Origin: Parasynechococcus marenigrum WH 8102
GTDB taxonomy: Bacteria > Cyanobacteriota > Cyanobacteriia > PCC-6307 > Cyanobiaceae
DNA length: 32,000 nucleotides
Assembly (NCBI RefSeq): GCF_000195975.1
Contig: NC_005070.1
Location: forward strand, 1,500,001 to 1,532,000
Direction of reading: 5' to 3'
Of this stretch, positions 13,531 to 25,961 are shown piece after piece. The position numbers were made by a program, and so were the translations under genes. Under the pieces are notes generated by a model. It ran no database searches and was not told the origin of the DNA. It saw only the letters and a list, made by a program, of their open reading frames with translations. Each line of letters begins with the position of its first letter. Position 1 is the first letter of the stretch.

Positions 13531-13779
13531 TCATCTGACCTCCGCAAGCTCTCTACGCACGGAGTCGATGCCGATCATCAACTTGCCGCGCTCGTGGAAT
13601 TTCTGACGGCAGGTGGTGATGTTCCAGCTGATTGAGCTGGCATCAGTTGGTCCGAAGCACCAATCCTGACCAGCGATCAGAAAGCCACCGTTACGGTCGC
13701 GATAACGCTTCAGCGTGCGGGCGCTGTAGCCCAAGGCTGTTGTTGCTGCCGGTGTTGGCAGCCATTCATGTTCAGGCAC
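13531..13779 (-). CDS. Xis/AlpA-like HTH protein (putative excisionase or regulator)
   Basis: 82 aa. EWLPTPAATTALGYSARTLKRYRDRNGGFLIAGQDW is paralogous to 17778..18014 (EWFKTSEAARLCGVSSYWLKENRDISGGFLVIDKHW). It lies downstream of integrase 1 on the same strand. Confidence 0.6.
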   Translation of the reverse strand: MPEHEWLPTPAATTALGYSARTLKRYRDRNGGFLIAGQDWCFGPTDASSISWNITTCRQKFHERGKLMIGIDSVRRELAEVR

Positions 13780-13970
13780 AAGAAGATCAGCGATTTTGTT
13801 CTCTGCTGATCTCTTGCGGTTTTTAAGGAAGTTACTAGCGGACCCCTGTCAAATCCCTTTTGCGCAGTGAAAAGAGTGAACCTTCAATCCAGTAATTAAG
13901 GCAAGGAACAACGTAATGTTGCTACTCGCACTGGGACAAGAGATGAAGCAAAATTGCTCCTAAACAACTT

Positions 13971-15110
13971 CTAGGCGGCTTCCGGGTGTAGGTCAAGGGG
14001 TGACAAGGTATCCCCCTCCAAAGTTGTCCTACCTGCTCCAGTAATCCGTTCGACAGCCTCAATCAAGCCAGCCTCATCAATCCACTGTCCATAACTGGCG
14101 TGATGCTCCTGTGGAGTGTGCCCGAGCAGCGCAGCAGCATCCCGAATCGACAACGGGCGGTCATATGACTTGTGCATCCGATAAGCACAGCCGTGCCCCA
14201 GGCTGTATGGCGTCAACCCTGAGCGGGTTGCTTCCAGGCCCTGCCAAAACCTGAAGCGTTGGAGCTGCTGCCGAATCTCATCACCAACAGGCTTGAAGCC
14301 TTTCTCCTCAGCCTCGTTGATGCGGTTCAAAACGGTCTGAGGGAAGCGAATCGTGCCAGTGCGCCACAGCATCACCAGACGCTCTCCTTCACCTTCTCTG
14401 CCTGGCACGTCGAAGGGCAACACCAACCTGTTCTTCTGTTTCTTGCCTCTAGTGGCTTTGTTCCGCTTGCCACCGGGTCGGACTTTCAAATGCCCGTCCT
14501 CCCAAATCAGCTGACTGACTTCAAGGGGGCGCAGACCGTAGATGCCAATAATCCCCACCAGCAACATCAGGCTGGTCCTGTCGGCATCCCTAAGCGCGTC
14601 GAGCAGATTGCCCAGATCGTTGGGCATCACAGGTGGCGTCAACTTGTCCTCAGTGGGTCTGTCGTCAGTACCGATCAACTCCCGCAGGTCATCTGTTTCC
14701 AGAGGCTTCCAACGGCTGTCGTAACCAAATTCCTTGATCGCGTGCCGCAGCAAGCCGCGAACGTTGTTCATCTGTGTGATGCGCCCTGATTTTCCTGGTG
14801 GGCAGTTCTTGAAATGCTGCCGAGCGAAGGAGCGCATCAGGTCAGCGCCACTTTGGGGACGTGGCTTCTTCGCCAAGGTTTGCTTCACCCGTTCCATGTG
14901 ACGGGTGAGGTCCTTCATCGTTGTTGAGCGGCTGTTCTGCCGCCTTCTCTCGATGAAGTCATAGATGACGGCCTGCCAGCCGCTGTCTTCGTCATCCACC
15001 GACTTGCTGACCGTGGGAGTCGCACCGTGCTGCTTCTGTAGCAGCTGAAACGCCTTTGCGAGGGACTCCTCCCCCTTCTCCATACGCTCCCTGATCTGGC
15101 AAACCACCAA
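13971..15110 (-). CDS. int: tyrosine recombinase/integrase paralogue 1 (catalytic Arg II replaced by Gly; possibly inactive)
   Basis: Box I is GLRPLEVSQL. Box II is PYSLGHGCAYR...LLGHT...HHASYGQW, versus PYSLRHGFAWR...LMGHT...HHRHYGAW in integrase 2. The start is ambiguous (TTG 15110, GTG 15107 or ATG 15083). Confidence 0.8.
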   Translation of the reverse strand: MVVCQIRERMEKGEESLAKAFQLLQKQHGATPTVSKSVDDEDSGWQAVIYDFIERRRQNSRSTTMKDLTRHMERVKQTLAKKPRPQSGADLMRSFARQHFKNCPPGKSGRITQMNNVRGLLRHAIKEFGYDSRWKPLETDDLRELIGTDDRPTEDKLTPPVMPNDLGNLLDALRDADRTSLMLLVGIIGIYGLRPLEVSQLIWEDGHLKVRPGGKRNKATRGKKQKNRLVLPFDVPGREGEGERLVMLWRTGTIRFPQTVLNRINEAEEKGFKPVGDEIRQQLQRFRFWQGLEATRSGLTPYSLGHGCAYRMHKSYDRPLSIRDAAALLGHTPQEHHASYGQWIDEAGLIEAVERITGAGRTTLEGDTLSPLDLHPEAA

Positions 15111-15420: not shown

Positions 15421-15453
15421 CAAGAAACCTGTCTAGGACAGTGTTTTGAAGAA

Positions 15454-15499
15454 TGGAGCCAAGGAGACTCGAACTCCTGACCCCCTGCATGCCATGCAG
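15454..15499 (-). repeat. 46-nt copy of the tRNA-Ala(GGC) 3' part (distal att repeat)
   Basis: tggagccaaggagactcgaactcctgaccccctgcatgccatgcag is identical to 24848-24893. Similarity ends exactly where the 5' part of the tRNA should continue. Confidence 0.9.
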
Positions 15500-15581
15500 T
15501 ACGTTGCTCGCTAAATAACAACGGTCAAATCGCCAGAAATACTAGGCCAGAACCCAGTTCACATCTGGATTCAGGCGAAGG

Positions 15582-15648
15582 TCGGCGCACAAGACTTATG
15601 GGTTCTTGTTGCTTCTTGGAGCGTTTTGGCGCACAATTTGGCGCACAA
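15582..15648 (+). promoter_or_regulatory. three copies of the TTTGGCGCACAA motif (1 + tandem pair); candidate arm-type integrase sites or iterons
   Basis: tcggcgcacaag at 15582. Exact tandem tttggcgcacaa tttggcgcacaa at 15625-15648. A mirror triplet lies at 24709-24762 in the same orientation. Confidence 0.5.
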
Positions 15649-16928
15649 GCCCTGACCACCTGCATCTCTTGGCCAAAGTCATCTGGTCCGACAACTTGCG
15701 GCAGGTGCTCAAGCGTGAGCACGGCAAAGGTTGGTCAGTCAGAGACCACCGTGGCCGGGTACAGCTGACGCGGATTTTTGAAGACCGTTCACGCAGTGCC
15801 GTTTACCTGCCATTGACTTGGACAGCCGATAACGCCACATCGATCCTCAACACGGTTGCTGCAATTCACGACCTGATGGATTCGCGCAAAGTCAGCCTGA
15901 AAGAAGCTGCCAGGTTGAACACTCAGGCATTGGCAGAGCCAGCCAAAAGCGCCAAGACGGTGGCTGACAAAGGTTGGGATGCAGTTGCTGCCGACTTCCT
16001 CAAGAGCCGTGGTGACAGGCGCAGCAGCACTCTCAGAGACCTCAAGCTGCGGGTTGAACGTGCTGTTGCAGTCATCAACCAGAAGCCCAAACCACGCGAC
16101 GGTATGAGCGTGTTGGAGGCATACGCCGCCGCCTACTTCAAGGAAATGGCACCCGGTGGTCAGGGGCGTAAACGAAATCTGAACGACGTCGTGGCATTCC
16201 TCCAATTCGCTGTTGATCGTTGCGGTGCACCAGACCGTTTCCTGCCACCACCAAAAGACCGCATCAATGAATTGATCGGCACCAGCCCAACATCAACAAC
16301 GGAACGACTGACACCACCAATCAAGGCAGACCAGTTCACTGCATTGTTGGATGCACTGGAAGCTGACGGCCGGCATGACCTCAAGCTGGCAGTGGCGTTG
16401 GTTGGCTATCTCGGGTTGCGGCCTGCAGAGCTGGCAGTCCTGCGTGTTGGTGATGACGAAAAGGCAAGGGTCGGCAGCATCAAGCGCAACATCCAAACGA
16501 TGCAGCAGGCAGACAAGCCGCCACGGTTGGTGATGCCACTTGAGATTGACGGCAGAAACAACGAAGGTGCCCGGGCCATAGCACAGTTCGCTAGTGGACT
16601 GGTGAAGTTGCCGAAAGCACTACGAAAACAGATTGATTTAGTTGAGGAGAAAGGACGTTTTCAAGACGTTGGTGCTGAATTTGCCCAGCAACTTTCACGC
16701 TGCAAGCATTGGCAAGCCATGTTCAAAGCAGACCCGCGCATCACCCCGTACAGCTTGCGCCATGGATTTGCTTGGCGGGCAACAGTGGGCCAAAACAAGA
16801 TTCCGGTAAGAACTACTGCCGCATTGATGGGGCATACAATGCAAGTGCACCACAGGCATTATGGCGCTTGGGTTGACGAAGCAGCCATTGAAGAAGCAGT
16901 TGGCATGCACAACGCTGTCGTCGCTTGA
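15606..16928 (+). CDS. int: tyrosine recombinase/integrase paralogue 2 (catalytic residues intact)
   Basis: GLRPAELAVL (Arg I), YSLRHGFAWR (Arg II), LMGHT, HHRHYGAW (Tyr). The true start is probably downstream of the 12-mer repeats, for example GTG 15705 (VLKREHGKGW). Confidence 0.85.
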   Translation: MLLLGAFWRTIWRTSPDHLHLLAKVIWSDNLRQVLKREHGKGWSVRDHRGRVQLTRIFEDRSRSAVYLPLTWTADNATSILNTVAAIHDLMDSRKVSLKEAARLNTQALAEPAKSAKTVADKGWDAVAADFLKSRGDRRSSTLRDLKLRVERAVAVINQKPKPRDGMSVLEAYAAAYFKEMAPGGQGRKRNLNDVVAFLQFAVDRCGAPDRFLPPPKDRINELIGTSPTSTTERLTPPIKADQFTALLDALEADGRHDLKLAVALVGYLGLRPAELAVLRVGDDEKARVGSIKRNIQTMQQADKPPRLVMPLEIDGRNNEGARAIAQFASGLVKLPKALRKQIDLVEEKGRFQDVGAEFAQQLSRCKHWQAMFKADPRITPYSLRHGFAWRATVGQNKIPVRTTAALMGHTMQVHHRHYGAWVDEAAIEEAVGMHNAVVA

Positions 16929-16962
16929 ACTGCGTTTACAAGATTGCCAACTACTTTTCTCG

Positions 16963-17364
16963 TCAAGTCTTTTGATTTGGTTCTGACGCTTTTGATTTGT
17001 CTTCAGGCGGCTTTTTGCCTGGTGTCGAAGCTTTTTCGCTAACTACGGTTGGCTGTTCACTTGGAGATGCATCTTCTTTGGTAGAGCCTGGGGGATTATT
17101 GCTTATTTCTGAATCTTCGATCTTTGTTGTAGATATTTTTTCTTCGGATGCAGGTGGTTCTTTTTTAACCTCAGTTGCGGGTTTTTCTTTTTTAACCTCA
17201 GTTGCAGGTGTTTCTTTCTTAACTACTGGCTTTTTCTTGGGTTTCAGCTTGCTTGTATCTAAAGACTTTTCGCCAAACGACTTAAATCCTAAAAAGATTA
17301 GCCCACCCACTACTGGGATAGAAGTAATACCGCCTATCGCAATTTCAAATTCGCTTAAGGCCAT
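16963..17364 (-). CDS. membrane-anchored Lys/Glu/Pro-rich low-complexity protein
   Basis: The likely start is MALSEFEIAIGGITSIPVVGGLIFLGF (a TM span). A KKETPATEVKKEKPATEVKKE tail follows, containing a 27-nt tandem duplication at 17161-17214. AT-rich. Confidence 0.45.
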   Translation of the reverse strand: MALSEFEIAIGGITSIPVVGGLIFLGFKSFGEKSLDTSKLKPKKKPVVKKETPATEVKKEKPATEVKKEPPASEEKISTTKIEDSEISNNPPGSTKEDASPSEQPTVVSEKASTPGKKPPEDKSKASEPNQKT

Positions 17365-17545
17365 GATCCATGTTCGATGTTCCTCAAATTTAGCATTATG
17401 GTTGCAAGTTCCCGCAAGTTTCGAGTATAAACTGAGGACCTCAGAGGTCGCCCCTGTCATTTCAAAGGCAGGGTTCCCCTCCTAGCGACTGCGACACCTA
17501 CATGTGTCTGCGGGGACGGAGCCAAGATCACCCCGATACGACGGA

Positions 17546-17806
17546 ATGGCTCGTAACGCAGACAATCGCAAAGGGAGAGGTCGGCCTGTCCGAATGCCTC
17601 AGAACCTTGCCGTCAAAGATCGGCAAGTGGTTCTGAAGTTGGCGGAACAGATGTCCCGCATCTGCAGCAACGCGACTGCAGAGCAGCTGGCAGAACTGGC
17701 TGCTGACCCTGATATTGCAACTGCTCCGCGTTTCTTCAAAGAAGCCATGAGGTCGTTCGGGACACCGCTCCCGACCGATGCAACACGAATGGTTCAAAAC
17801 GTCTGA
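17546..17806 (+). CDS. hypothetical protein with N-terminal basic GRGRP (AT-hook-like) segment
   Basis: MARNADNRKGRGRPVRMPQ.... It overlaps the next gene by 29 nt. Same strand as the replication module. Confidence 0.4.
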   Translation: MARNADNRKGRGRPVRMPQNLAVKDRQVVLKLAEQMSRICSNATAEQLAELAADPDIATAPRFFKEAMRSFGTPLPTDATRMVQNV

Positions 17807-18014
17807 GGCTGCAAGGCTCTGCGGCGTTTCTAGTTACTGGCTGAAGGAAAACCGCGACATCAGCGGTGGCTTCCTTGTGATCGACAAGCACTGGATTCCT
17901 GGCATCACACCAACGTCATCAATTCGATGGCACGTGCCATTGGTGCTGGAAGCGATGCGATACCACGGCATGAATCGCATCAAAGGCGATCAGATGTTGG
18001 AGGCCGTGCAGTGA
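17778..18014 (+). CDS. Xis/AlpA-like HTH protein (paralogue of 13531..13779)
   Basis: MQHEWFKTSEAARLCGVSSYWLKENRDISGGFLVIDKHW. Its stop TGA overlaps the next GTG start (GTGA). Confidence 0.6.
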   Translation: MQHEWFKTSEAARLCGVSSYWLKENRDISGGFLVIDKHWIPGITPTSSIRWHVPLVLEAMRYHGMNRIKGDQMLEAVQ

Positions 18015-18235
18015 TTAAGCGCGCCACCTTCGATGACAACGGCAAAAAAGTGCCGGTGAAACTCACTGTTCGTGAGCAGATGCGTCATGCAGCAGCAATG
18101 GCTGACGACTGCAGATCAAAGCTGCAATGGCACCTGACTCCTACTGCGCGGGAGATGTACGAAGACTCCCTGCTTCGGCACACGCAGGACTGGATCCGAC
18201 TCAAAAAACAAGCAGACCAACAAGCAGAAAAATGA
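18011..18235 (+). CDS. 74-aa hypothetical protein (translationally coupled)
   Basis: The GTG at 18011 overlaps the preceding stop. Its own stop overlaps the ATG of the primase gene (ATGA at 18232-18235). Confidence 0.45.
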   Translation: MIKRATFDDNGKKVPVKLTVREQMRHAAAMADDCRSKLQWHLTPTAREMYEDSLLRHTQDWIRLKKQADQQAEK

Positions 18236-19374
18236 CCCACAACCCAATGGGTCGCGGGCCACTCCCTGCCAAAGATGTGGTCAATTTAGGCGACCCTCTG
18301 CCTACAAAGCAGTGCGTCACAGCACTGAAACCCACTGCAGTACCTGAAGAAAATCTGCCCGACTGGGCTCAATGTGCGCCAAAGAGTGCGCCGAACAGTG
18401 TTTACAACGCAGGCACTGATGTCACTGATGTCACTGACGGTACGGATGGCACTGGCAAACGGCTCACCATTGATGCAGCTCAAGCCCATTGGCATCTGGA
18501 CCTGCTTGGCAGGGATGAACGTGACGTTCACATCAGAGCCATCCCGCACAAGGGCAAACGCGGTTTCGCCATCAATGGCAACTTCGCCATGGACCTCGAG
18601 CGATTCCAAGATCTGAACAACCAGGGCTACGGCCTGTACCTTCAGCCAAACATCGGCGGCACCTTGAAAGATGAGGTCACGCTGTGCACCTCACTGTTCT
18701 GGGAATACGACGACAGACCACGGTCTTAACAGGTTGAGCTTTGGCAATCAACCGTTGGGTTGCAACCCACGTTCCAGATCGACACGGGTGGAAAGTCGAT
18801 CCACAACTATTTGGTGCTGGATACCCCTATGGCTCCGGGGCCATGGACGCTGTTGATGGAACGTCTGCAGTTGGCAGCGCCTGGCTGCGACAAAAGCTGC
18901 AAAGGCAACAACCGCATGATGCGGATGGCTGGTGCCCACTACATCGACCGTGAAGGTAAATCCCGGGGGCGATCACAGATCATCAACGCTGACGGCCCGC
19001 GTTACTCAGCTGAAGAGCTGGATGCAGTGTTGCCACCGTTGCTGGTGCCATCGAAAACCAACCGCAAGAAGTTGCGGACTGGTTCAGCGTCAGTGCGACA
19101 GATCGCTGAAGCGCTCGATTACATCCCACGTCGCGTTGGTGGCGCTGGCACCTACGCCATGTACCGCGATGTGTTGTGGGGGTTGAAGGCTGCGCTTGCT
19201 GATGCCGGTGCAGCCGAGACCTTGGCCATTCAGCTGATGGAAGCGCACAGTCCCTCAGCTCAATGCGATTGGGATGTTGAGCAGGTAGCTCGGTCTGGTG
19301 GTGAGCAGATCGGTGCAGGAACACTTTTCCACTACGCCAAGCAATACGGATGGAGTCGTCATGCAAAACGCTGA
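18232..19374 (+). pseudogene. AEP-type primase(-polymerase) with PriCT-2-like C-terminus, interrupted by an in-frame TAA at 18727-18729
   Basis: LFWEYDD (AEP motif I-like) ends the first ORF. TGGKSIHNY (motif II-like) and RMMRMAG follow in the same frame after a single TAA. The C-terminus GTLFHYAKQYGW is PriCT-like. Confidence 0.6.
18373..18395 (-). promoter_or_regulatory. tandem pair of the GGCGCAC 12-mer inside the primase gene (inverted relative to the end copies)
   Basis: The reverse complement reads ttcggcgcactc tttggcgcaca. Confidence 0.35.
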
Positions 19375-20664
19375 ACTAAACAAAGTCGTTGATGACGCTG
19401 AAAACGACAACCCAGAACTGAAGACCAAAGACTTCATTGAACGGGCAACAACGCTCAAGGAGAACCTCGACACGGGGTTGGAACGCGTTGATCAGATCGA
19501 TGACCCAGCGTTGCGGTCTGTGGCTCTGATCCAGCTACGGGACGAACTGGGCCTTAATCGCAATGAGTTCATGCGCCTGGTGGAACTGCTGTCCAAATTC
19601 AAAGGGGAGCAGCCGCCAGAAGACTTTGATGAACTCCGCAAGTGGACATCAGAGCGGCGTGAACCGCCTGTTGTGGAAGACCTGCTTGGCTCCAGCTGCC
19701 TGACTGTTTGGGCAGCTGATGGCTCTTCAGGCAAAAGCATGGGTGGTTATGAACTCAGCGAAGCCGTAACCACTGGCGGCAAGTTCGCTGGTCAGTTTCA
19801 AGCGCAGGTTGGCGATGTGGTGTTCGTCCAAGAAGACGAGTCACCCAGTGATGCTGAGGTGAAGTGGCGACGTATGGGTTTCAACCCCGACGGCAAACGA
19901 CTGCACATGATGTGGTCGTTCACTCCAATGATGCTTCCGGAGTTAAAAGCCAAGATCCAGCCACCTAAGCAAAGCTGGTGGTGATGGATTCGCTTATCAG
20001 CATTGCTGGCGGAACCATCTCACCAAAGGATGCTGAGTTTGCGCTGCTGCTTTACCGGCTCAACAAGTTGGCGTCGGAATTGGGCGTAGCGATCCTCCTG
20101 ATTCACCACCTCACAAAGGACAGCAACCGCAAAGAGGTCAGCAAAGAAGCCATCTTCGGCAGCGCCTTCATCTACGCCGCTACAGCCGATTGCTGGGGCT
20201 ACTGGCGGTGCGATGAAGACGGCAAACCGCATTTCAAATTGCGGGTGCTGAAGGCTCGTTCCAACACCGTTGATCTGGGCACCACCTACGTCTTCAACGG
20301 CAATGAGGAAGACCACCGCTTGAGCTTCAAAGGCTTTGGTGATCGTGTGGTCAGCCTTGATGAACTGAAGACCAAACGCGACCAGGTGGCAGCCTTGTTG
20401 CATCGCGATGGCAGCCAGAAATGGTCTGGTGCTTGCGTCAGCGACTTCTTCGGTTGGAACGGCAGCCGTTACGCCGAAAACGTGTTGTCCAAACTCTACG
20501 AACAACGTTGTGGCGTTGATCGTGTGGCAATGCCCAGCACTGGTGGCAGGCGGAAATACGCCTACTTCAGCGTTTTGGGTGGAGAAGTGAAAAAGTCCGA
20601 CTTCCCCACAGCTTCTACACCCCCTAAAACCGGGTCAGAAGCCAGTTCGGAACTGGACTTCTAA
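19361..20664 (+). pseudogene. RecA-like (AAA_25/RepA-type) replicative helicase split by a frameshift near 19966-19984
   Basis: Walker A (AADGSSGKS) lies in ORF 19361..19984. Walker B-like VVMDSL and LIHHLTK lie in ORF 19978..20664, one frame away. Joining at ~19969 gives ...IQPPKAKLVVMDSL. Confidence 0.6.
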
Positions 20665-20784
20665 GGATCTTTCACACACTTCTTACTCCTCGTGATACTG
20701 AATGACCTACTGCAACCAATGCAGTTGGTCACTCAATTCAAACCAGCTACCACAGCTGGACTTCTACACATTCTTTCCCACCAA

Positions 20785-20807
20785 TGTGCGCCAATTAGTG
20801 CGCCAGA
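20785..20807 (-). promoter_or_regulatory. tandem pair of the GGCGCAC 12-mer between the helicase and HTH genes
   Basis: The reverse complement reads tctggcgcacta attggcgcaca. It lies 3 nt from the stop of 20810..21193. Confidence 0.35.
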
Positions 20808-20809
20808 TG

Positions 20810-21193
20810 TCAGCCCTTGTAATTCCCGTGTCGGTTGCCGTATCCCCGATGCCGATTGCTGTGAATACTGTCCAGCTCGCGTGACAGCACCGCTTGGTAA
20901 ATCAGGTTCATGCCAGCAACAGCGGCACCGTATGCACCTGCCTTCTCGGCTTTCTGAACGATGGTCTGAGTTCTATGGCAGAACCATGCCAGCAGCTCTT
21001 TGACTTCCGTCGAACTCAGTTCCCCTACCAGTCTGTTTCTCGCCCAAGTCAAGTCCCGTTGGGCAGTCCTCTCAGATACCCCGTACTTTCCCGACACAAG
21101 CGCCGCAACTGTTCTGAAGCTGTTTCCATCAGCAAGCAACGCCAACGCATGTTCCCTACGGGCTAAGCGTTCTTTAGCGGTAGTCCTTGCCAT
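20810..21193 (-). CDS. HTH DNA-binding protein (copy B, inverted relative to 12271..12654)
   Basis: 127 aa. It differs from copy A at 20 nt: 18 synonymous, 1 Ser/Thr change, and the stop codon (TAA versus TGA). Confidence 0.75.
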   Translation of the reverse strand: MARTTAKERLARREHALALLADGNSFRTVAALVSGKYGVSERTAQRDLTWARNRLVGELSSTEVKELLAWFCHRTQTIVQKAEKAGAYGAAVAGMNLIYQAVLSRELDSIHSNRHRGYGNRHGNYKG

Positions 21194-21209
21194 AGCTCAA
21201 TAAAAGTAA

Positions 21210-21797
21210 TCAACGAAGTCCTTCACAGGCTTCACCATCATTATCGCTATCTAGATAGACGTGACCCTCTTGAAGAAGTAATTGCGCTTTATCCCACGAA
21301 GAGATTTCGCTACAACGAAGCCTTGCATTGGTCCCCCTCCTATAAATCCAAGGCCTCGTAATGCCTTGCTTACCTTCTGACCAGATACCTTGTTTGAGAT
21401 CTCTCGCTTGACTTTCCAGGAGAAGAAGATTTGGACCATCACAATCTGAAAGATATCTTGTGTACACAAACACAAGCCCTTTACGCACTAGTTCTCCAGC
21501 TACATCAACTCCCCCTGGAGTAGAGACATGTGCAACTGTGCGGCCATATCGATCTTTTTTGATGGGATAGATTGTAATGGCTGAGTCTGCAGGTATCAAT
21601 CCGCGAAATGCATTCATAGCTAGTCTTCCGTATGGATATTGTCCAATTTCTGGGGCATTAACGCATGCCAGCCTTATTTGTTGCGGGATACCATTTAGCC
21701 TTACGATAAGACTGTCTCCATCAACCACCCTGATGACTTCAGAGGCGGTGAGTGGTTGCGGAGTAAAAACAAGCAGACCTAAAACTAACTTTGACAT
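21210..21797 (-). CDS. secreted thermonuclease (SNase-like) with C-terminal Excalibur Ca-binding domain
   Basis: The start is taken at MSKLVLGLLVFTPQPLTA (signal-peptide-like). SNase motifs: DGDSLIVRL...IRLACVNAPE...DRYGRTVAHV. The C-terminus C..ISSWDKAQLLLQEGHVYLDSDNDGEACE fits the Excalibur pattern. AT-rich. Confidence 0.8.
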   Translation of the reverse strand: MSKLVLGLLVFTPQPLTASEVIRVVDGDSLIVRLNGIPQQIRLACVNAPEIGQYPYGRLAMNAFRGLIPADSAITIYPIKKDRYGRTVAHVSTPGGVDVAGELVRKGLVFVYTRYLSDCDGPNLLLLESQARDLKQGIWSEGKQGITRPWIYRRGTNARLRCSEISSWDKAQLLLQEGHVYLDSDNDGEACEGLR

Positions 21798-21866
21798 CCC
21801 AATAGCAAGCGACTCCAACACATGTCCCCTACGGGCAAAGCATTCTTTCGCGGTGGTGCGTGCCAT
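21798..21866 (-). pseudogene. 5' remnant (23 codons) of an HTH-gene copy fused in frame to the nuclease ORF
   Basis: MARTTAKECFARRGHVLESLAIG is encoded by atggcacgcaccaccgcgaaagaatgctttgcccgtagggg.... This is homologous but not identical to the first ~70 nt of 20810..21193. Confidence 0.6.
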
Positions 21867-22029
21867 CAGAAGTCAGCCAAAGAAGTCATGAGTTTGCGAG
21901 CCTTACCTATTTGCTCTTCTGAAAGACGGAAGTATTCAATTTATTCTCCAATGTTTTGACAACCACTGTCTAGAGGATCAAAGCGCCTTCGAATGACCGG
22001 AGAATGATGGTCAATTCAGAACATTTTAA

Positions 22030-22743
22030 TCACCCTATTGCTAGATCTACTGCCCTTGAAAGAGTCAATCCAAATACGTCAAGCACTACGAATCCATTTA
22101 AAAGTCGTACTATTTTTGAAGTAGAAGTTTTGCATGAATCCCCAGAGTAGTCGAAGCAAGCCTCTGCTGCGAAGAAAAAATATTCAAGAGCCCCTAGCCC
22201 GTCCATTCCTGCAATTGCCGGTGACAGATTTCTTTCAGATCGTCCATGGTTCATTCGCCAATACCACCACGTAAAACAAATCAAGATTATGGGAATAAAA
22301 AGCAAAAGCTCAATAATTAAAAGCACTGGGCTTTTGATAGGAGCCACAAGAAGCAGATTCATTATAACAAGTTCAACGATCCAGCAGGCTGAAAGGAAGA
22401 TAGCCAGTAGGTCAATCGATCTTCGCGCTTTTTTGCCCGATAGTCTCAGTACTATCAGAATAAATGTATACGTAAAAAATCCAGCTCCTATTGGCTGAAC
22501 ATGATTAGTGAGTGCATCCAAAAACGAATGAGATATCTCAAGAAAATTCTTAACCGCACCTTCTTCGACAGCCTCAAGGTCTAAGTTTCTATCAAATTGC
22601 TCAGTAAAAATAAAAGTAATAAGGAGTACGTAAATTTCCCCAGGGCTTTTGATTCGATCAATAAATGGCATTGTACTACCAGCAAGTTTTAAATATTTAA
22701 GCAAAAAAGCCCGGGGCTTCCAACCCCCCGGGCTAGTACTCAT
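22030..22743 (-). CDS. multi-pass membrane protein (unknown function)
   Basis: 237-aa AT-rich ORF with about 5 hydrophobic spans. The start may be M25 (MPFIDRI). The segment EYFFFAAEACFDYSGDS loosely recalls a degenerate pore loop, which is speculative. Confidence 0.5.
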   Translation of the reverse strand: MSTSPGGWKPRAFLLKYLKLAGSTMPFIDRIKSPGEIYVLLITFIFTEQFDRNLDLEAVEEGAVKNFLEISHSFLDALTNHVQPIGAGFFTYTFILIVLRLSGKKARRSIDLLAIFLSACWIVELVIMNLLLVAPIKSPVLLIIELLLFIPIILICFTWWYWRMNHGRSERNLSPAIAGMDGLGALEYFFFAAEACFDYSGDSCKTSTSKIVRLLNGFVVLDVFGLTLSRAVDLAIG

Positions 22744-22853
22744 CGAAAGCAGGGCGCTGTCACGATTAGGCGCGCGAATAAGTCATTGTTAGGCTGAGGT
22801 ATTCCCGTGGCGATAGCTGGCTGATCCAGCTTCTTGCCTGAGCGGACCTTGCC

Positions 22854-22895
22854 ATGATGTTCAGCAACGATTTATTGGGTCATCTGCATCGCTGA
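22854..22895 (+). CDS. 13-aa mini-ORF (leader-like), paralogue of 6239..6280
   Basis: MMFSNDLLGHLHR*. The stop lies 1 nt upstream of the next ATG. Confidence 0.25.
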   Translation: MMFSNDLLGHLHR

Positions 22896-22896
22896 G

Positions 22897-22989
22897 ATGG
22901 CACGCGTTTTTCGTGACCAGTGGTTGTCAATAGCGATTGGAGGAGCATCACTAGTGACGTTGGTGTGGCTTGAGGCGTTTGTCTGGTGA
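22897..22989 (+). CDS. 30-aa hydrophobic peptide, paralogue of 6145..6237
   Basis: MARVFRDQWLSIAIGGASLVTLVWLEAFVW*. Frame and length are conserved in the inverted duplicate. Confidence 0.4.
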   Translation: MARVFRDQWLSIAIGGASLVTLVWLEAFVW

Positions 22990-23096
22990 TGACTGTCGTT
23001 ACATAGCTTCATAGTCATGTGTACGTTAATGACGCTTCTGAAAGATCCGCAGGCATTGTTTTTAGCTTTTCAGCTATTAATTTTCTGTCATGTCTC

Positions 23097-23267
23097 ATGA
23101 CCCATCCAACTGCTGGCGACAAAGCGATTTGTAAAGCGCAACTACTCCAATTGGCGCGTGAAATTGAAATAGAAACAAACATAAGACGAATGGAAATTGC
23201 TAGAGAGCGTTTCTCTTTAAAGACTGATTCAGTTGTCGTAGAGGCAGGTCATGGCCGGGGGGTTTAA
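23097..23267 (+). CDS. 56-aa hypothetical protein
   Basis: ATG-started part of ORF 23019..23267 (MTHPTAGDKAICKAQLLQLAREIEIE...). AT-rich. Its 3' end runs into the dispersed repeat. Confidence 0.25.
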   Translation: MTHPTAGDKAICKAQLLQLAREIEIETNIRRMEIARERFSLKTDSVVVEAGHGRGV

Positions 23268-23307
23268 GGGCATAAATCGCTGAGACCGACTGCGCTGCAA
23301 TGGATTT
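23255..23307 (-). repeat. dispersed ~53-nt repeat, copy 4
   Basis: Reverse complement: aaatccattgcagcgcagtcggtctcagcgatttatgcccttaaaccccccgg. Confidence 0.7.
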
Positions 23308-23323
23308 ACCCCGGGGCCCCTTG

Positions 23324-23377
23324 CCGGGCGGCTTTAGGGGTATAAATCGCCGAGATCAACTGCAGTGCAATGGATTT
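23324..23377 (-). repeat. dispersed ~53-nt repeat, copy 5 (tandem with copy 4, ~69-nt period)
   Basis: Reverse complement: aaatccattgcactgcagttgatctcggcgatttatacccctaaagccgcccgg. It begins 15 nt after the stop of 23392..23592. Confidence 0.7.
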
Positions 23378-23391
23378 ACCCCCGGCGCCCC

Positions 23392-23592
23392 TCATGGCAA
23401 CCCCGCAGCGATGAAGTGCTCCTCGACCAAGGACAGCTCTGTGTCGTTTAGGTCCTTAGCCATATCAGCGATGACACCAGCAACGATGGTTCTGGTGATG
23501 CGGAACCATTCCTCCCGGCTACAGCTCCGAGGCCATTCCTGAATACCTTCGAGGAGAGGGGTCTGAGCGACGTGATCAAGGATGTTGGTCAT
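23392..23592 (-). CDS. small conserved hypothetical protein, NILD..IADM family, copy 3 (third gene of an operon)
   Basis: MTNILDHVAQTPLLEGIQEWPRSCSREEWFRITRTIVAGVIADM.... 4-nt ATGA overlap with the upstream gene. Confidence 0.6.
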   Translation of the reverse strand: MTNILDHVAQTPLLEGIQEWPRSCSREEWFRITRTIVAGVIADMAKDLNDTELSLVEEHFIAAGLP

Positions 23593-23942
23593 GAGGCCAT
23601 CTCCCGAGCATCAAGCTCACGCTGCAAGCGATCGCGTAGATCAGCAGCAGCGTCACGGTCATCAAGAACACCGCCAACACGTTTCTCAAGCTCTGAGTTG
23701 AGAGTGCCGATCTTGCTGTCTAAATACAGCATGTGCGCTTCGACCTGCTTCTCGTAGCGATGCAGGTGAGACGGCAACCATGTGTGCCAGGTCCAGTCGA
23801 TAAACGACTGCGGCATACCGGAGAAGGTTGGGTCGACTTCTAGAGCTGCATCACGCTCAGCGAGCAGACGATCCATGACACGTCTGGTGTCAGCTGGGCT
23901 GATGTGCAACCAACCAAGACAAGGGTGAGGGCGAGAAAGCAT
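23589..23942 (-). CDS. hypothetical protein (117 aa), middle gene of the operon
   Basis: Start and stop are overlap-coupled to both neighbours. GC-rich coding-like composition. Trp/His-rich centre (FIDWTWHTWLPSHLHRY) and an acidic/Arg coiled tail. Confidence 0.55.
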   Translation of the reverse strand: MLSRPHPCLGWLHISPADTRRVMDRLLAERDAALEVDPTFSGMPQSFIDWTWHTWLPSHLHRYEKQVEAHMLYLDSKIGTLNSELEKRVGGVLDDRDAAADLRDRLQRELDAREMAS

Positions 23943-24352
23943 CAGAAGTACCTCCCGGTCATTGGGTTGATGCCACTGATGAGCTGCTGCTCGCGGACCT
24001 TGGCAGCTCTCTCGTTACTTTCGCGGAGGCGCTCTGTGCGCATCTGCAGGGCCTGCGCTGCCATGGCTCTGGCTTCCTTCTCCTCGTCGATACGGTGCCG
24101 AATACCAGGGTCGATACCGCAGAAGTGAGCTAACTCTGCACAATCTTGTGCAATAAGCGATGTAAGTGTCAGGTTTGACCTGATTTTTGCCATGTCGACC
24201 GGTTGACCGTAACGACGTGCTGGGAGGAGATTCTTGGTGCCATCGATCTTGGCGATTCTGGCTTCAAGCTGACGAGCTTGAGTTTCGACTTGTGATGCAG
24301 ATTGGTACGACGCCTTGATCTGGTCATCGATAGAAAAGTATTCAGCTGACAT
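23942..24352 (-). CDS. hypothetical coiled-coil-like protein (136 aa), first gene of the operon
   Basis: Its TGA shares one nt with the ATG of the next gene (TGATG). No motif recognised. Confidence 0.55.
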   Translation of the reverse strand: MSAEYFSIDDQIKASYQSASQVETQARQLEARIAKIDGTKNLLPARRYGQPVDMAKIRSNLTLTSLIAQDCAELAHFCGIDPGIRHRIDEEKEARAMAAQALQMRTERLRESNERAAKVREQQLISGINPMTGRYF

Positions 24353-24613
24353 GGGTTGCTAGGCGGCGGCTTTGGGGATTTGCTAGTGGGTCGTAGGAAG
24401 GCACATGTGGTGCGTCGTCATCAATTTCAAAGACTGCACGCTGACGTTCAATACTGGCTTCAAGACGAAGACGATTGATGATCAGGTCAGCCTGAATAGG
24501 GAGCTGACGTTAGGCACTGAATAGCGGTATTTATCGGTGTACATAGCTTAGCTCTTTTGAGTAAACTGAAAACAGCCAGTTTTACGGTGGACTGGCTGCT
24601 CAGTGCCGCTAAT

Positions 24614-24645
24614 AGGGACCGCTTCGGTGGTCCTTATTTGATATT
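24614..24645 (+). terminator. hairpin with UUCG tetraloop followed by a U-rich tail (terminator-like; possible 3' end of a small RNA)
   Basis: aGGGACCGC-TTCG-GTGGTCCtt followed by ATTTGATATTT. A second perfect 8-bp hairpin lies at 24573-24598. Confidence 0.35.
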
Positions 24646-24708
24646 TAGCGCCATCATGAAATAACGAATAAAAGGGCGACTCCCCAGTACTGGACAATGT
24701 GCTCCAGT

Positions 24709-24762
24709 TTTTTGGCGCAACTCGACCACTTACGGCCATTTGGCGCACACTTTGGCGCACAA
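24709..24762 (+). promoter_or_regulatory. three copies of the TTTGGCGCACA motif (1 + tandem pair) at the tRNA-proximal end of the element
   Basis: tttggcgcaac at 24711. tttggcgcacac tttggcgcacaa at 24739-24762. Same strand and layout as 15582-15648. Confidence 0.5.
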
Positions 24763-24788
24763 GAAATGACATTTAGCCGTTTTGCACT

Positions 24789-24813
24789 AAAAAAGCGGCC
24801 ACCGTAGACCGCT
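24789..24813 (-). terminator. intrinsic terminator of tRNA-Ala
   Basis: On the minus strand: GCGGTC - 6-nt loop - GGCCGC followed by T6, 34 nt past the tRNA 3' end. Confidence 0.55.
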
Positions 24814-24847
24814 CAAATGCCAGTGCCTGACTGGGTTCTCTTAGAAA

Positions 24848-24920
24848 TGGAGCCAAGGAGACTCGAACTCCTGACCCCCTGCATGCCATGCAGGTGCTCT
24901 ACCAGCTGAGCTATGGCCCC
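24848..24920 (-). tRNA. tRNA-Ala(GGC): tRNA-Ala (anticodon GGC)
   Basis: Manual cloverleaf: acceptor GGGGCCA/TGGCTCC with the G3:U70 Ala identity pair, D arm GCTC/GAGC, anticodon stem CCTGC/GCAGG with loop ATGGCAT, T arm AGGAG-TTCGAGT-CTCCT. 73 nt; CCA not encoded. Confidence 0.9.
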
Positions 24921-24985
24921 ATGAACGCCGGTGATGCCCTCGGGCTCGTGCCGTCGTCGTATCCAAGCTTACACCGAGGCGGCGA

Positions 24986-25609
24986 TCACACCTGACGCCA
25001 CACCGCCACCAACCGGCCCTGCACCTCCACCTGCTCCGCCGGCAGCTCGATCGGGTCGTAGGCAGGGTTGGCTGCTTCGAGCACAACCGCCGCCCCTTTG
25101 CGGTGGAAATGCTTCAGGGTTGTGCCGCTTCCCGCCACCAGGGCACTCACAACGGTGCCGTTGCGCAGGCGCTGCGGATCAGGCACAGGCTCCATCAACA
25201 CCACGTCGCCATCAGCGATGTGAGCATCCACCATCGAATCACCGTTCACCGTGAGGGCAAACAGTCCGCGGGTCTCCAGAACCGGTGCCAGATCAAGGTG
25301 CTCCTGAACGTCATCAAAGGCCGTCACCAGGCCACCTGCAGCCACGGCACCCAGCACGGGAATGCCGGCAGCCGCAGCCATGTCACCCAGCAATTGCAGG
25401 GTGCGGGCCTGTCCTTCCTGCCAGGTGATCCACCCTTTCTGTTGGAGATGCCGCAAGCGGCTCTGGATCGGCGCTGGAGAACGCAGCCCCATCGCCTGCA
25501 TCATCTGACGGATCGACGGGCTGTGCCGATGTGTGCCAATGTACTCCGCCAGCCAGTCGTACAGCTCCTGTTGGGCGGAGGTCAATGGCTCTGGGGATGA
25601 GATGGTCAC
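24986..25609 (-). CDS. lexA: LexA repressor (S24 peptidase)
   Basis: Winged-HTH N-terminus (LTSAQQELYDWLAEYI...SIRQMMQAMGLRS), Ala-Gly cleavage site (VAAGG), catalytic GDSM and a downstream Lys (TLKHF). The start is set at GTG 25609, giving 207 aa; the 256-aa ORF in the track would overrun the putative operator. Confidence 0.85.
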   Translation of the reverse strand: MTISSPEPLTSAQQELYDWLAEYIGTHRHSPSIRQMMQAMGLRSPAPIQSRLRHLQQKGWITWQEGQARTLQLLGDMAAAAGIPVLGAVAAGGLVTAFDDVQEHLDLAPVLETRGLFALTVNGDSMVDAHIADGDVVLMEPVPDPQRLRNGTVVSALVAGSGTTLKHFHRKGAAVVLEAANPAYDPIELPAEQVEVQGRLVAVWRQV

Positions 25610-25627
25610 AAAACAAGGCGCCGAACA

Positions 25628-25639
25628 ATACATTTGTAC
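25628..25639. promoter_or_regulatory. candidate LexA box (imperfect palindrome ATACA-TT-TGTAC)
   Basis: It lies ~20 nt upstream of the lexA GTG and between the divergent genes. It matches the GTAC-centred palindromes reported for cyanobacterial LexA boxes with one mismatch. Confidence 0.4.
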
Positions 25640-25688
25640 CGACGGCGTCCGCGCTGCGCAAGATCCCAGCCTTGATTGCGGCCAAGAC

Positions 25689-25961
25689 ATGTGGCATGAC
25701 CAGCCGAAACACAGCGACAAGCCGGAGAAGGCCGGTGGCCAAGGCTGGCTGATCAACCCATCACAGCAGAAGCTGGTGCAGTTTCAGCCCGGTTCAGCCA
25801 CAGCCCACGCTCAGTGGGTGGCCATTCACACATTCCGCCTCAAGCCCGGTGAAGCACCAACGCTGATCACAGGGCGCCGGATGCTGCGTCAAAACGCCAT
25901 TGAGGCCTGGCAGACCATGCTCAAAACCGGATGGACTCGATGTCATTCACCAAGGAGATGA
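25689..25961 (+). CDS. DUF1651-like small protein (picocyanobacterial family; tentative)
   Basis: ATG at 25689. ...GGQGWLINPSQQKLVQF....RRMLRQNAIEAWQTMLKTGW fits my recollection of DUF1651 (GWL...W..L...GW). Divergent from lexA. Confidence 0.5.
   Translation: MWHDQPKHSDKPEKAGGQGWLINPSQQKLVQFQPGSATAHAQWVAIHTFRLKPGEAPTLITGRRMLRQNAIEAWQTMLKTGWTRCHSPRR

Follow-up and report, generated by a model that had tools for sequence, protein, structure and literature searches.

Lineage-specific 12-mers as candidate arm-type sites of a tyrosine integrase in a picocyanobacterial tRNA-Ala island

Introduction

The chromosome of Parasynechococcus marenigrum WH 8102 carries a 9.4-kb island (15452-24893) inserted at a tRNA-Ala(GGC) gene, in which one short motif, (T)TyGGCGCAC, is found ten times, both just inside the two ends and beside the replication genes kilobases away. 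The question raised by this locus is which protein reads the motif, and what the internal copies might be for. All positions refer to the window, by which we mean the whole stretch of 32,000 nucleotides (nt) that was analysed (contig NC_005070.1, positions 1,500,001 to 1,532,000 of the forward strand). The first-pass annotation of this DNA had taken the repeats either for arm-type sites bound by the integrase or by an excisionase (Xis), or for iterons or an origin bound by the primase or a helix-turn-helix (HTH) protein. Comparison with related loci leads us to the view that the 12-mers are probably arm-type sites of the tyrosine integrase of the island.

A direct repeat of 48 nt, identical in its two copies (15452-15499 and 24846-24893), bounds the island and corresponds to the 3' part of tRNA-Ala(GGC). 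The right attachment (att) repeat is part of the intact tRNA gene (24847-24921, minus strand; repeat and gene together 24846-24921), with the core palindrome CCTGC-ATGCCAT-GCAGG at 24878-24894. The left att repeat, also on the minus strand, is a displaced copy of the 3' 47 nt of the tRNA (tRNA positions 29-75, 100% identity), and the left core, again the anticodon-stem palindrome, lies within this copy at 15484-15500. An Rfam scan of the element gave the tRNA as its sole match. Reading inward from the left end on the plus strand, the genes are the integrase gene int, a small Xis-like gene, a primase gene and a helicase gene.

The repeated 12-mer in the window

The motif occurs as a single copy plus a tandem pair in each arm, and as two further tandem pairs of inverted orientation inside the element. 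In the int-side arm, the core-proximal single site is TCGGCGCACAAG (15582-15593, plus strand), which is invariant in L001 and L160 (L-numbers denote loci fetched for comparison). It is followed by the int-proximal pair, two copies of TTTGGCGCACAA (15625-15648, plus strand), 124 nt from the core palindrome. In the far arm, the single site TTTGGCGCAACT (24711-24722, plus strand; TTTGGCGCAAC at 24711) is kept in L028, and the pair TTTGGCGCACAC TTTGGCGCACAA (24739-24762, plus strand) has equivalents at the distal att of L002, L006, L022 and L232. The internal pairs are TTCGGCGCACTC TTTGGCGCACAT at 18373-18396 (site 1) and TCTGGCGCACTA ATTGGCGCACAT at 20785-20808 (site 2), each 59-60 nt from a sequence that mimics the core. 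All arm copies are on the plus strand and both internal pairs on the minus strand, and the period is 12 nt in all four pairs.

These motif coordinates, which the first-pass annotation had already given for both arms and for the inverted pairs, were all borne out on re-checking. The left triplet does lie 83-149 nt inside the att repeat, as stated there, and the right one lies 84-135 nt inside rather than 86-137 nt. The two triplets are not mirror images, as they had been called, because the 1+2 order and the strand are the same at both ends.

Four 12-nt tandem pairs are present in the window, as against none in 500 dinucleotide shuffles. The core 7-mer GGCGCAC occurs 11 times (5.3 ± 2.2 in shuffles), and nine of the 11 copies fall inside the element, which makes up 29% of the window (binomial P = 5e-4). 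Two core copies lie outside it, at 14359 (minus strand) and 30232, where only one had been counted previously.

Tandem pairs are phased to the att core across the integrase family

The integrase belongs to a large picocyanobacterial family, from which we compared 38 genomic and 80 metagenomic loci with integrase relatives at 32-96% identity. Nearly all of about 105 related loci carry a tandem pair 20-160 nt 5' of int, the period being 12 nt in most cases, and our reading of the upstream DNA agreed with the result when the same region was searched blindly for the 10-mer that recurs best at a period of 11-13 nt. The first-pass annotation had named absence of the motif from homologous ends with the same integrase as evidence against its proposal; what we found upstream of int in these relatives was the pair. 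The motif itself is lineage-specific, with more than ten variants, which include GGCGCAC, CTGCGCTA, CTGCTCTA, CTGCGCCC, TTGCGCATC, TTTGGCGCA, TTTGGTGCA, TTCTGCGCTA, TTCTGCTCTA, TTCTGCGCCC, TTCTGCGCAC, TTTTGCGCAT, TTTTGCGCTA, TTTGTCGCTA and TTTGGAGCAC. Both ends of the element are on the contig in four cases, namely the window, L002 at tRNA-Arg(TCT), L006 at tRNA-Ala and L022 (Synechococcus RCC307) at tRNA-Val(CAC), and in all four the motif of the lineage recurs immediately inside the far att, where it is paired and often accompanied by a third copy.

Furthermore, in about 50 loci the int-side pair stands at one of just two distances from the anticodon-stem palindrome, 111-112 or 122-124 nt, regardless of the orientation of the tRNA, and these two classes are one helical turn apart. 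At the far-end att of L002 and L006, the pair and the anticodon stem are separated by 55-58 nt. A phased arm-to-core geometry of this kind is as would be expected of arm-type sites in a lambda-type complex, and the fixed spacing points to the symmetric anticodon stem-loop as the likely recombination core. The idea of arm-type integrase sites is therefore favoured by their presence in both arms, their fixed helical phase to the core, their recurrence in about 105 relatives and the covariation with the integrase N-terminal domain described below.

The orientation of the target varies within the family. Relative to int, the tRNA or its fragment has the same direction in L002-L006, L008, L016, L019 and L026, and the opposite direction in the window, L009-L015, L020, L022, L027-L030 and L236. 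Both orientations are found even among elements sharing an arm motif, and the spacing of 111-112 or 122-124 nt is kept. It seems that the symmetric core can take either orientation with respect to the arms, and that this decides whether int lies at the intact tRNA or at the far end.

Other arrangements were seen at the ends of related elements. In tandem stacks, next to a far-arm pair of the GGCGCAC type comes an att copy, and beyond it an integrase belonging to another motif type (L014 2785-2935, L028 1130-1308, L029 3-150 and 7440-7596, L006 1229-17932). In two loci from Prochlorococcus single-cell genomes (L023 9774-9847, L030 5318-5393), a full-length tRNA-Ala on the opposite strand stands directly 5' of int, with its 5' end facing int, at the place where the window has only a 3' fragment; no downstream tRNA repeat was found there within 8-11 kb. 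In L021, L024 and L031 a tRNA fragment upstream is lacking and the arm pair comes after the 3' end of a conserved coding gene (…CAGGAGATGCTGTTCGT.AGATGA), an arrangement suggestive of a changed target site. No integrase relatives were found in the viral contigs searched. The pattern TTGGCGCA-N4-TTGGCGCA gave more than 120 matches in viral contigs, none with a related integrase or a tRNA core, and was discarded as too unspecific.

The motif follows the integrase N-terminal domain

In AlphaFold2 models (predicted local distance difference test score of 87 for the full integrase and 91 for the isolated N-terminal domain), the first ~90 residues are predicted to form a separate alpha-beta3-alpha2 domain, which is joined by a disordered linker (residues 90-98) to the core-binding and catalytic domains. 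Among known structures, the model of the entire protein matches those of XerA, Tn1549 Int and full-length lambda Int.

We compared the residues of this N-terminal domain with the bases of the motif over 70 non-identical loci, a sample in which shared ancestry inflates all covariation figures. Residue 33 goes with base 9 of the motif: a lysine there is accompanied by T in 33 of 35 loci, and a glutamine by a base other than T in 33 of 33. Residues 37 and 41 go with base 4, which is G with I37 (20/20) or R41 (21/21) and T with R37 (46/47) or G41 (42/43), while I35 goes with T at position 6 (3/3). The mosaic integrase of L179, which combines K33 with I37 and R41, has the motif TTTGTCGCTA, which joins both halves as predicted from these pairings. 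The N-terminal domain holds 23% of the tested columns and takes 40 of the 72 top mutual-information slots, a ranking that supports the covariation weakly, because shared ancestry lifts catalytic-domain columns too. Comparison of the motif with integrase and primase, the check proposed by the first-pass annotation, thus comes out in favour of the integrase: the motif follows the residues of its N-terminal domain and not the primase.

Composite sites inside the element

Each of the two internal pairs stands next to an imitation of the att core. At site 1, the mimic TCTGC-CTACAAA-GCAGT (CTGC-N7-GCAG) lies at 18297-18313 in the 5' coding region of the primase gene, and its stem is kept in 11 of 11 aligned loci. 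The pair itself occupies primase codons ~46-55, where relatives have the motif of their own lineage; equivalents were found in L001, L005, L006, L014, L015, L159, L160, L179, L236 and others. At site 2, the mimic ACTGC-AACCAAT-GCAGT (20709-20725) lies in the non-coding gap after the helicase gene, and has different loops in L001 and L159. Here the pair is placed about 120 nt past the helicase stop and abuts the stop codon of a convergent open reading frame (ORF), 20810-21193; equivalents are present in L001, L014, L006, L159, L167, L171 and L174.

On the forward strand of the pair, the distance from the pair to the start of the palindrome is 58-61 nt at all sites 1 and 2 that were examined (the window, L001, L159, L160, L005, L006, L015, L019, L030, L179 and others). 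A relaxed scan added the freshwater elements L162, L164, L167, L171, L173-L176 and L211, and the total reached at least 25 composite sites with at least eight motif variants. A blind search of the 32-kb window for a periodic pair followed after 54-63 nt by YTGC-N7-GCAG returned only sites 1 and 2.

The stem of the internal palindromes is that of the tRNA-Ala(GGC) anticodon, which is also that of the att core. In L236, where the stem of the target tRNA fragment is TCTCC/GGAGA, the internal palindrome is TCTCC-N7-GGAGG, a compensatory switch in step with the att core. The internal sites copy the far-arm-plus-core half of att, because the real far-end att of L002 and L006 has the same layout. In every element checked, the 7-nt spacers of sites 1 and 2 differ both from the anticodon loop and from each other. 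Since they match neither att nor one another, productive strand exchange is unlikely, and we rejected recombination of site 1 with site 2, or of either with att. We also rejected the idea that the site 1 palindrome is kept solely for the L-P-x-x-Q peptide that it encodes, as site 2 is non-coding and L236 alters the peptide and keeps the palindrome.

Homology between L005 and L006 covers att, int, xis and site 1 and then stops, while the primase homology between the window and L015 starts just past site 1. Site 1 therefore travels with the integrase module, as one homology ends and the other begins right after it.

From this layout we consider, with nearly even confidence for and against, that the internal composites are non-recombining pseudo-att sites, which would be bound through both DNA-binding parts of the integrase. 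The fuller reading, to which we give slightly less than an even chance, joins three proposals: that the internal sites are pseudo-att sites, that the integrase has a second function as a regulator or architectural protein, which could insulate or loop the replication module, gate the antisense RNA at the primase start or set the excision frequency through decoys, and that its N-terminal domain is an unrecognised arm-binding fold with a partly modular code (residue 33 for base 9, residues 37 and 41 for base 4, residue 35 for base 6).

Alternative explanations

Winged-helix directionality factors such as lambda Xis, P2 Cox and P4 Vis typically bind direct repeats spaced by one helical turn, and the tandem repeats of the island fit this pattern. 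A small Xis/AlpA-like HTH protein could bind them in the manner of Cox or Vis, as directionality factor at the arms and as transcriptional regulator at the internal sites; its gene is the second most conserved of the family, site 1 always lies about 145 nt past its stop codon, and site 1 moves with the int-xis module. Nevertheless, this Xis-type explanation, which the first-pass annotation had also offered, is distinctly unlikely. Directionality factors usually occupy one arm and not both, and the pair upstream of int persists in L009, L013 and L027, where the surrounding 10 kb hold no Xis-like gene. L022 has its Xis-like gene with the replication genes, 6 kb off, and the motif at the arms only. 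Moreover, the recognition helix is not sorted by motif: it reads SSYWLKEN in the window and SQNHLKRC in L002, which share a motif, and the L002 helix resembles those of L014 and L020, loci with other motifs. Very unlikely, in our view, are replication-origin iterons to which the primase or the C-terminal helicase domain would bind, with the end clusters forming an origin on the circle and the internal pairs an enhancer. Origins can indeed lie within or beside replication genes, as does the lambda ori within gene O and that of the Staphylococcus aureus pathogenicity islands (SaPIs) after rep, and the internal pairs similarly flank the primase-helicase module, one in the 5' end of the primase gene and one shortly past the helicase stop. 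The C-terminal half of the helicase is also strongly divergent between L001 and L014, whose motifs differ. However, among the explanations considered this is the one least compatible with the dissociation data, as the motif follows neither primase nor helicase. It is unchanged when the helicase is replaced, both between L005 and L006 (29% identity over 108 amino acids) and between the window (AAA_25) and L002 (DUF3987), and it is changed when the primase is conserved, both in L015, whose primase is 69-76% identical to that of the window and whose motif is TTTTGCGCATC, and in L014, which has TTTTGCGCATC with a primase 49% identical to that of L001, a locus with a different motif. In addition, throughout the integrase family a pair stands upstream of int in phase with the att core, L022 has no motif near its primase-helicase gene, and the primase stretch at site 1 is proline-rich and poorly conserved, an unlikely DNA-binding domain. 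Finally, chance matches or sites of a global host regulator such as LexA are almost certainly not the explanation. The lexA gene adjoins the tRNA (24986-25756), and hallmark genes of tycheposons, the class of element discussed below, respond to mitomycin C (preprint 10.1101/2020.12.28.424599), but four exact-period pairs against none in 500 shuffles are hard to ascribe to chance, and the motif follows integrase residues. A single host factor is excluded, because the motif differs between elements that share a genome and are stacked at the same tRNA (L014, L028, L029, L006).

For site 1, an explanation mainly at the level of RNA has to be weighed as well. A GC-rich hairpin with a T-run lies at 18225-18266 on the minus strand and overlaps the primase ATG (18232). 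It is found in 12 of 12 loci from at least six lineages (the window, L001 ~4908, L014 5303-5327, L006 11976-12002, L005, L015, L019, L030, L159, L160, L179, L236), 135-144 nt after the pair, with a folding energy of -16 to -24 kcal/mol and followed by 5-8 T. Its 3' arm ends on the complement of the primase ATG, its stem shows compensatory changes, and it matches no Rfam family. This hairpin may be the terminator of a putative ~140-nt antisense transcript over the primase start, or alternatively it may sequester the primase start codon, enforcing translational coupling to the Xis-like gene. The pair would then mark the promoter of the antisense RNA and the palindrome would be a stem-loop within it; the RNA would cover the first ~45 primase codons and the start and end at 18266-18225, as in plasmid counter-transcript control. 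We regard this as improbable, yet far from negligible. Site 2 has the same pair, 58-61 nt and CTGC-N7-GCAG in non-coding DNA without such a terminator, the palindrome stem is kept in its sequence and not in its pairing alone, being equal to the att core stem even through the switch in L236, and we found neither a promoter consensus nor an Rfam family. An antisense RNA would also be compatible with integrase binding, the integrase controlling the antisense promoter.

Several observations weigh against our own interpretation of arms and internal sites. The link between the internal palindromes and the att core comes from a single contrasting lineage, L236, and internal pairs could not be detected in many members of the family, such as L022 and the majority of the CTGCGCTA group, so the internal sites are not essential to the integrase. 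Site 1 is coding, and part of its conservation could be at the level of peptide or RNA; the terminator-like hairpin stands at a fixed distance from it. Several catalytic-domain columns are also high in mutual information, in a covariation confounded by shared ancestry. Furthermore, the isolated N-terminal domain gave no significant Foldseek match in PDB or BFVD, the arm-binding domains of lambda and Tn916 included, and has no Pfam match, so that its proposed DNA binding draws on predicted topology and covariation. Scans for sigma-70 promoters found none recognisable near any pair.

The integrase gene and a proposed mechanism

The tyrosine integrase is encoded at 15669-16928 (plus strand), with Pfam and PHROG integrase matches. 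Its annotated ORF of 440 codons is too long, because homologues begin at a position aligned with TTG 15669, which we take as the real start; a later start codon had been suspected from the overlap of the left triplet with the annotated 5' end. The int-side tandem pair ends 20 nt upstream of this TTG, and integrase bound to it should therefore also repress int. There is a precedent in tRNA-associated integrases such as IntS of KplE1, which represses a promoter overlapping attL (PMC2951348), and by analogy the int-side pair probably also mediates self-repression of the integrase.

A mechanism can be inferred from the observed architecture, conservation, geometry and covariation. The N-terminal domain would read the 12-mer, while the rest of the integrase would bind the anticodon-stem palindrome CCTGC-N7-GCAGG, where strand exchange would take place. 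On the excised circle, the arm pairs and single sites would flank the core and organise the recombination complex, and integrase on the int-side pair would repress int, as in KplE1. The internal look-alikes would bind integrase without recombining. In the version that we prefer, they would hold it as a roadblock, a loop or a decoy, so that how strongly the replication module is expressed, or how often the island is excised, would depend on the level of integrase; another possible role is control of the putative antisense RNA over the primase start.

Gene content and flanks of the island

The Xis/AlpA-like small HTH gene lies at 17778-18014 (plus strand), with tblastn and hidden Markov model matches in about 25 loci, and in relatives it is always immediately 5' of a primase-type gene. 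Neither the Xis-like protein nor the integrase matched the PDB by sequence. The primase-polymerase gene (18232-19374, plus strand) is inactivated in this copy by an in-frame TAA at 18727-18729, and the AAA_25/RepA-type helicase gene (19298-20664, plus strand) has a net -1 frameshift near 19957-19980 relative to L159. In L159, a metagenomic locus whose integrase is 96% identical, GAA stands at the place of the TAA, the primase is intact and so is the helicase ORF (463 amino acids); both genes are also intact in L001 and L014. The integrase of the window retains every invariant catalytic position. On this evidence the island copy is decaying; it may still move but probably does not replicate autonomously, and sequencing error may alternatively be the source of the TAA and the frameshift.

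After the helicase, on the other strand, follow the small ORF 20810-21193, a nuclease-like gene, a membrane protein gene and ORFs of no assigned family. Pfam and NCBIfam gave no family for the Xis-like protein, for ORF 20810-21193, which the first-pass annotation had called an HTH gene, or for most of the cargo. ORF 20810-21193 and the nuclease-like ORF 21210-21866 share their first ~22 residues (MARTTAKE..), owing to a 68-nt repeat (21126-21193 and 21799-21866, 82% identical) that is a sign of duplication or recombination between genes. A 69-nt unit is present in two head-to-tail copies (80% identical) at 23252-23390, with no convincing ORF and no Rfam match. Four 27-nt repeats at 17136-17256, in ORF 16963-17460 (minus strand), encode a Lys/Glu-rich repeat of a small membrane-anchored protein, and the segment ~16936-17396 is missing from the near-identical L159.

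Outside the element, the lexA gene that adjoins the target tRNA-Ala is on the minus strand and encodes a LexA DNA-binding domain and an S24 peptidase. To the left of the left att copy there is a second Xis-like gene (13534-13848, minus strand). In the same flank, L001 has at 46-130 a periodic pair (TCTGCGCAT../TCTGCGCAC), and a CCTGC-N7-GCAGG palindrome lies at a distance of 56 nt from it. The left flank is probably the remnant of an older element with another motif type.

Comparison with known systems

Tycheposons are defined by an inward-facing, tRNA-targeting integrase at one end, a small replication module beside it, and cargo (10.1101/2020.12.28.424599). In the present island we find a site-specific integrase, full and partial tRNA flanks, inward gene order and cargo, and on its sequence it would be counted among them. 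Homologues of its integrase at 32-39% identity stand beside tRNA-Ala in Prochlorococcus single-cell genomes, including AG-355-N18, which is named in the tycheposon preprint (10.1101/2020.12.28.424599). The island has in common with tycheposons the tRNA-targeting tyrosine integrase, the partial tRNA repeats at the ends, the xis-primase-helicase module, the cargo and the tandem stacking at one tRNA, and differs in that the present copy is in a marine Synechococcus-type genome. The text of the preprint (10.1101/2020.12.28.424599) does not mention arm-type sites, iterons or direct repeats, nor does it describe a core that faces either way at constant arm spacing, and a text search of the literature for arm-type sites in Synechococcus integrases gave nothing relevant.

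Since gene flow in the most abundant marine phototrophs has been proposed to be carried mainly by tycheposons, a cis-regulatory map of one such island, with its arms, core, two internal look-alikes and a corrected int start codon, may be of wider use. The candidate recognition code could pair orphan att ends with integrases in fragmented metagenomes and sort the elements of stacked islands. Moreover, the integrase may have a further use as a regulator of the replication genes of its own element, and if the internal sites are indeed integrase-bound decoys or operators, they would represent a mechanism that has not been described in lambda-type systems. As kinds of feature, arm-type sites and self-repressed integrases are already known; what appears undescribed are the proposed pseudo-att sites inside the element and a motif code that goes with an N-terminal domain of no known class.

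In P4, which has Int and Vis, a tRNA-associated integrase gene is likewise self-repressed through a promoter overlapping attL. The IntS/TorI system of KplE1 resembles the island in that int faces inward from the att junction with an arm pair directly upstream of its start, and differs from it in that the regulation proposed here would reach two distant composite sites around the replication genes, which the KplE1 model does not include (PMC2951348). With the P4 ori/crr system of the alpha primase-helicase, and with the ori of SaPIs and other phage-inducible chromosomal islands (PICIs), the island shares a satellite-like build with integrase and primase-helicase, one short motif at several distant places, and repeats in or next to the replication genes, as at sites 1 and 2. 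Unlike the P4 and SaPI iterons, the motif of the island follows the integrase and is phased to the att core, and its internal copies are paired with core mimics and not with an AT-rich unwinding region.

The closest comparison is with the lambda-type integrases (lambda with P1, P2 and P'1-3, and P2, HP1, L5 and Tn916), which likewise have direct repeats distinct from the core in both arms of attP at fixed distances, and an additional domain that precedes the core-binding and catalytic domains at the N-terminus. Over its full length, the modelled island integrase aligns with full-length lambda Int; for its N-terminal domain, no match to the lambda or Tn916 arm-binding domains was detected in sequence or in fold. 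The sites of the island also differ in being pairs of strict 12-nt period, and its core in being a symmetric anticodon stem that is used in either orientation. Finally, in contrast to the lambda-type systems, the island carries look-alikes of arm plus core kilobases inside the element.

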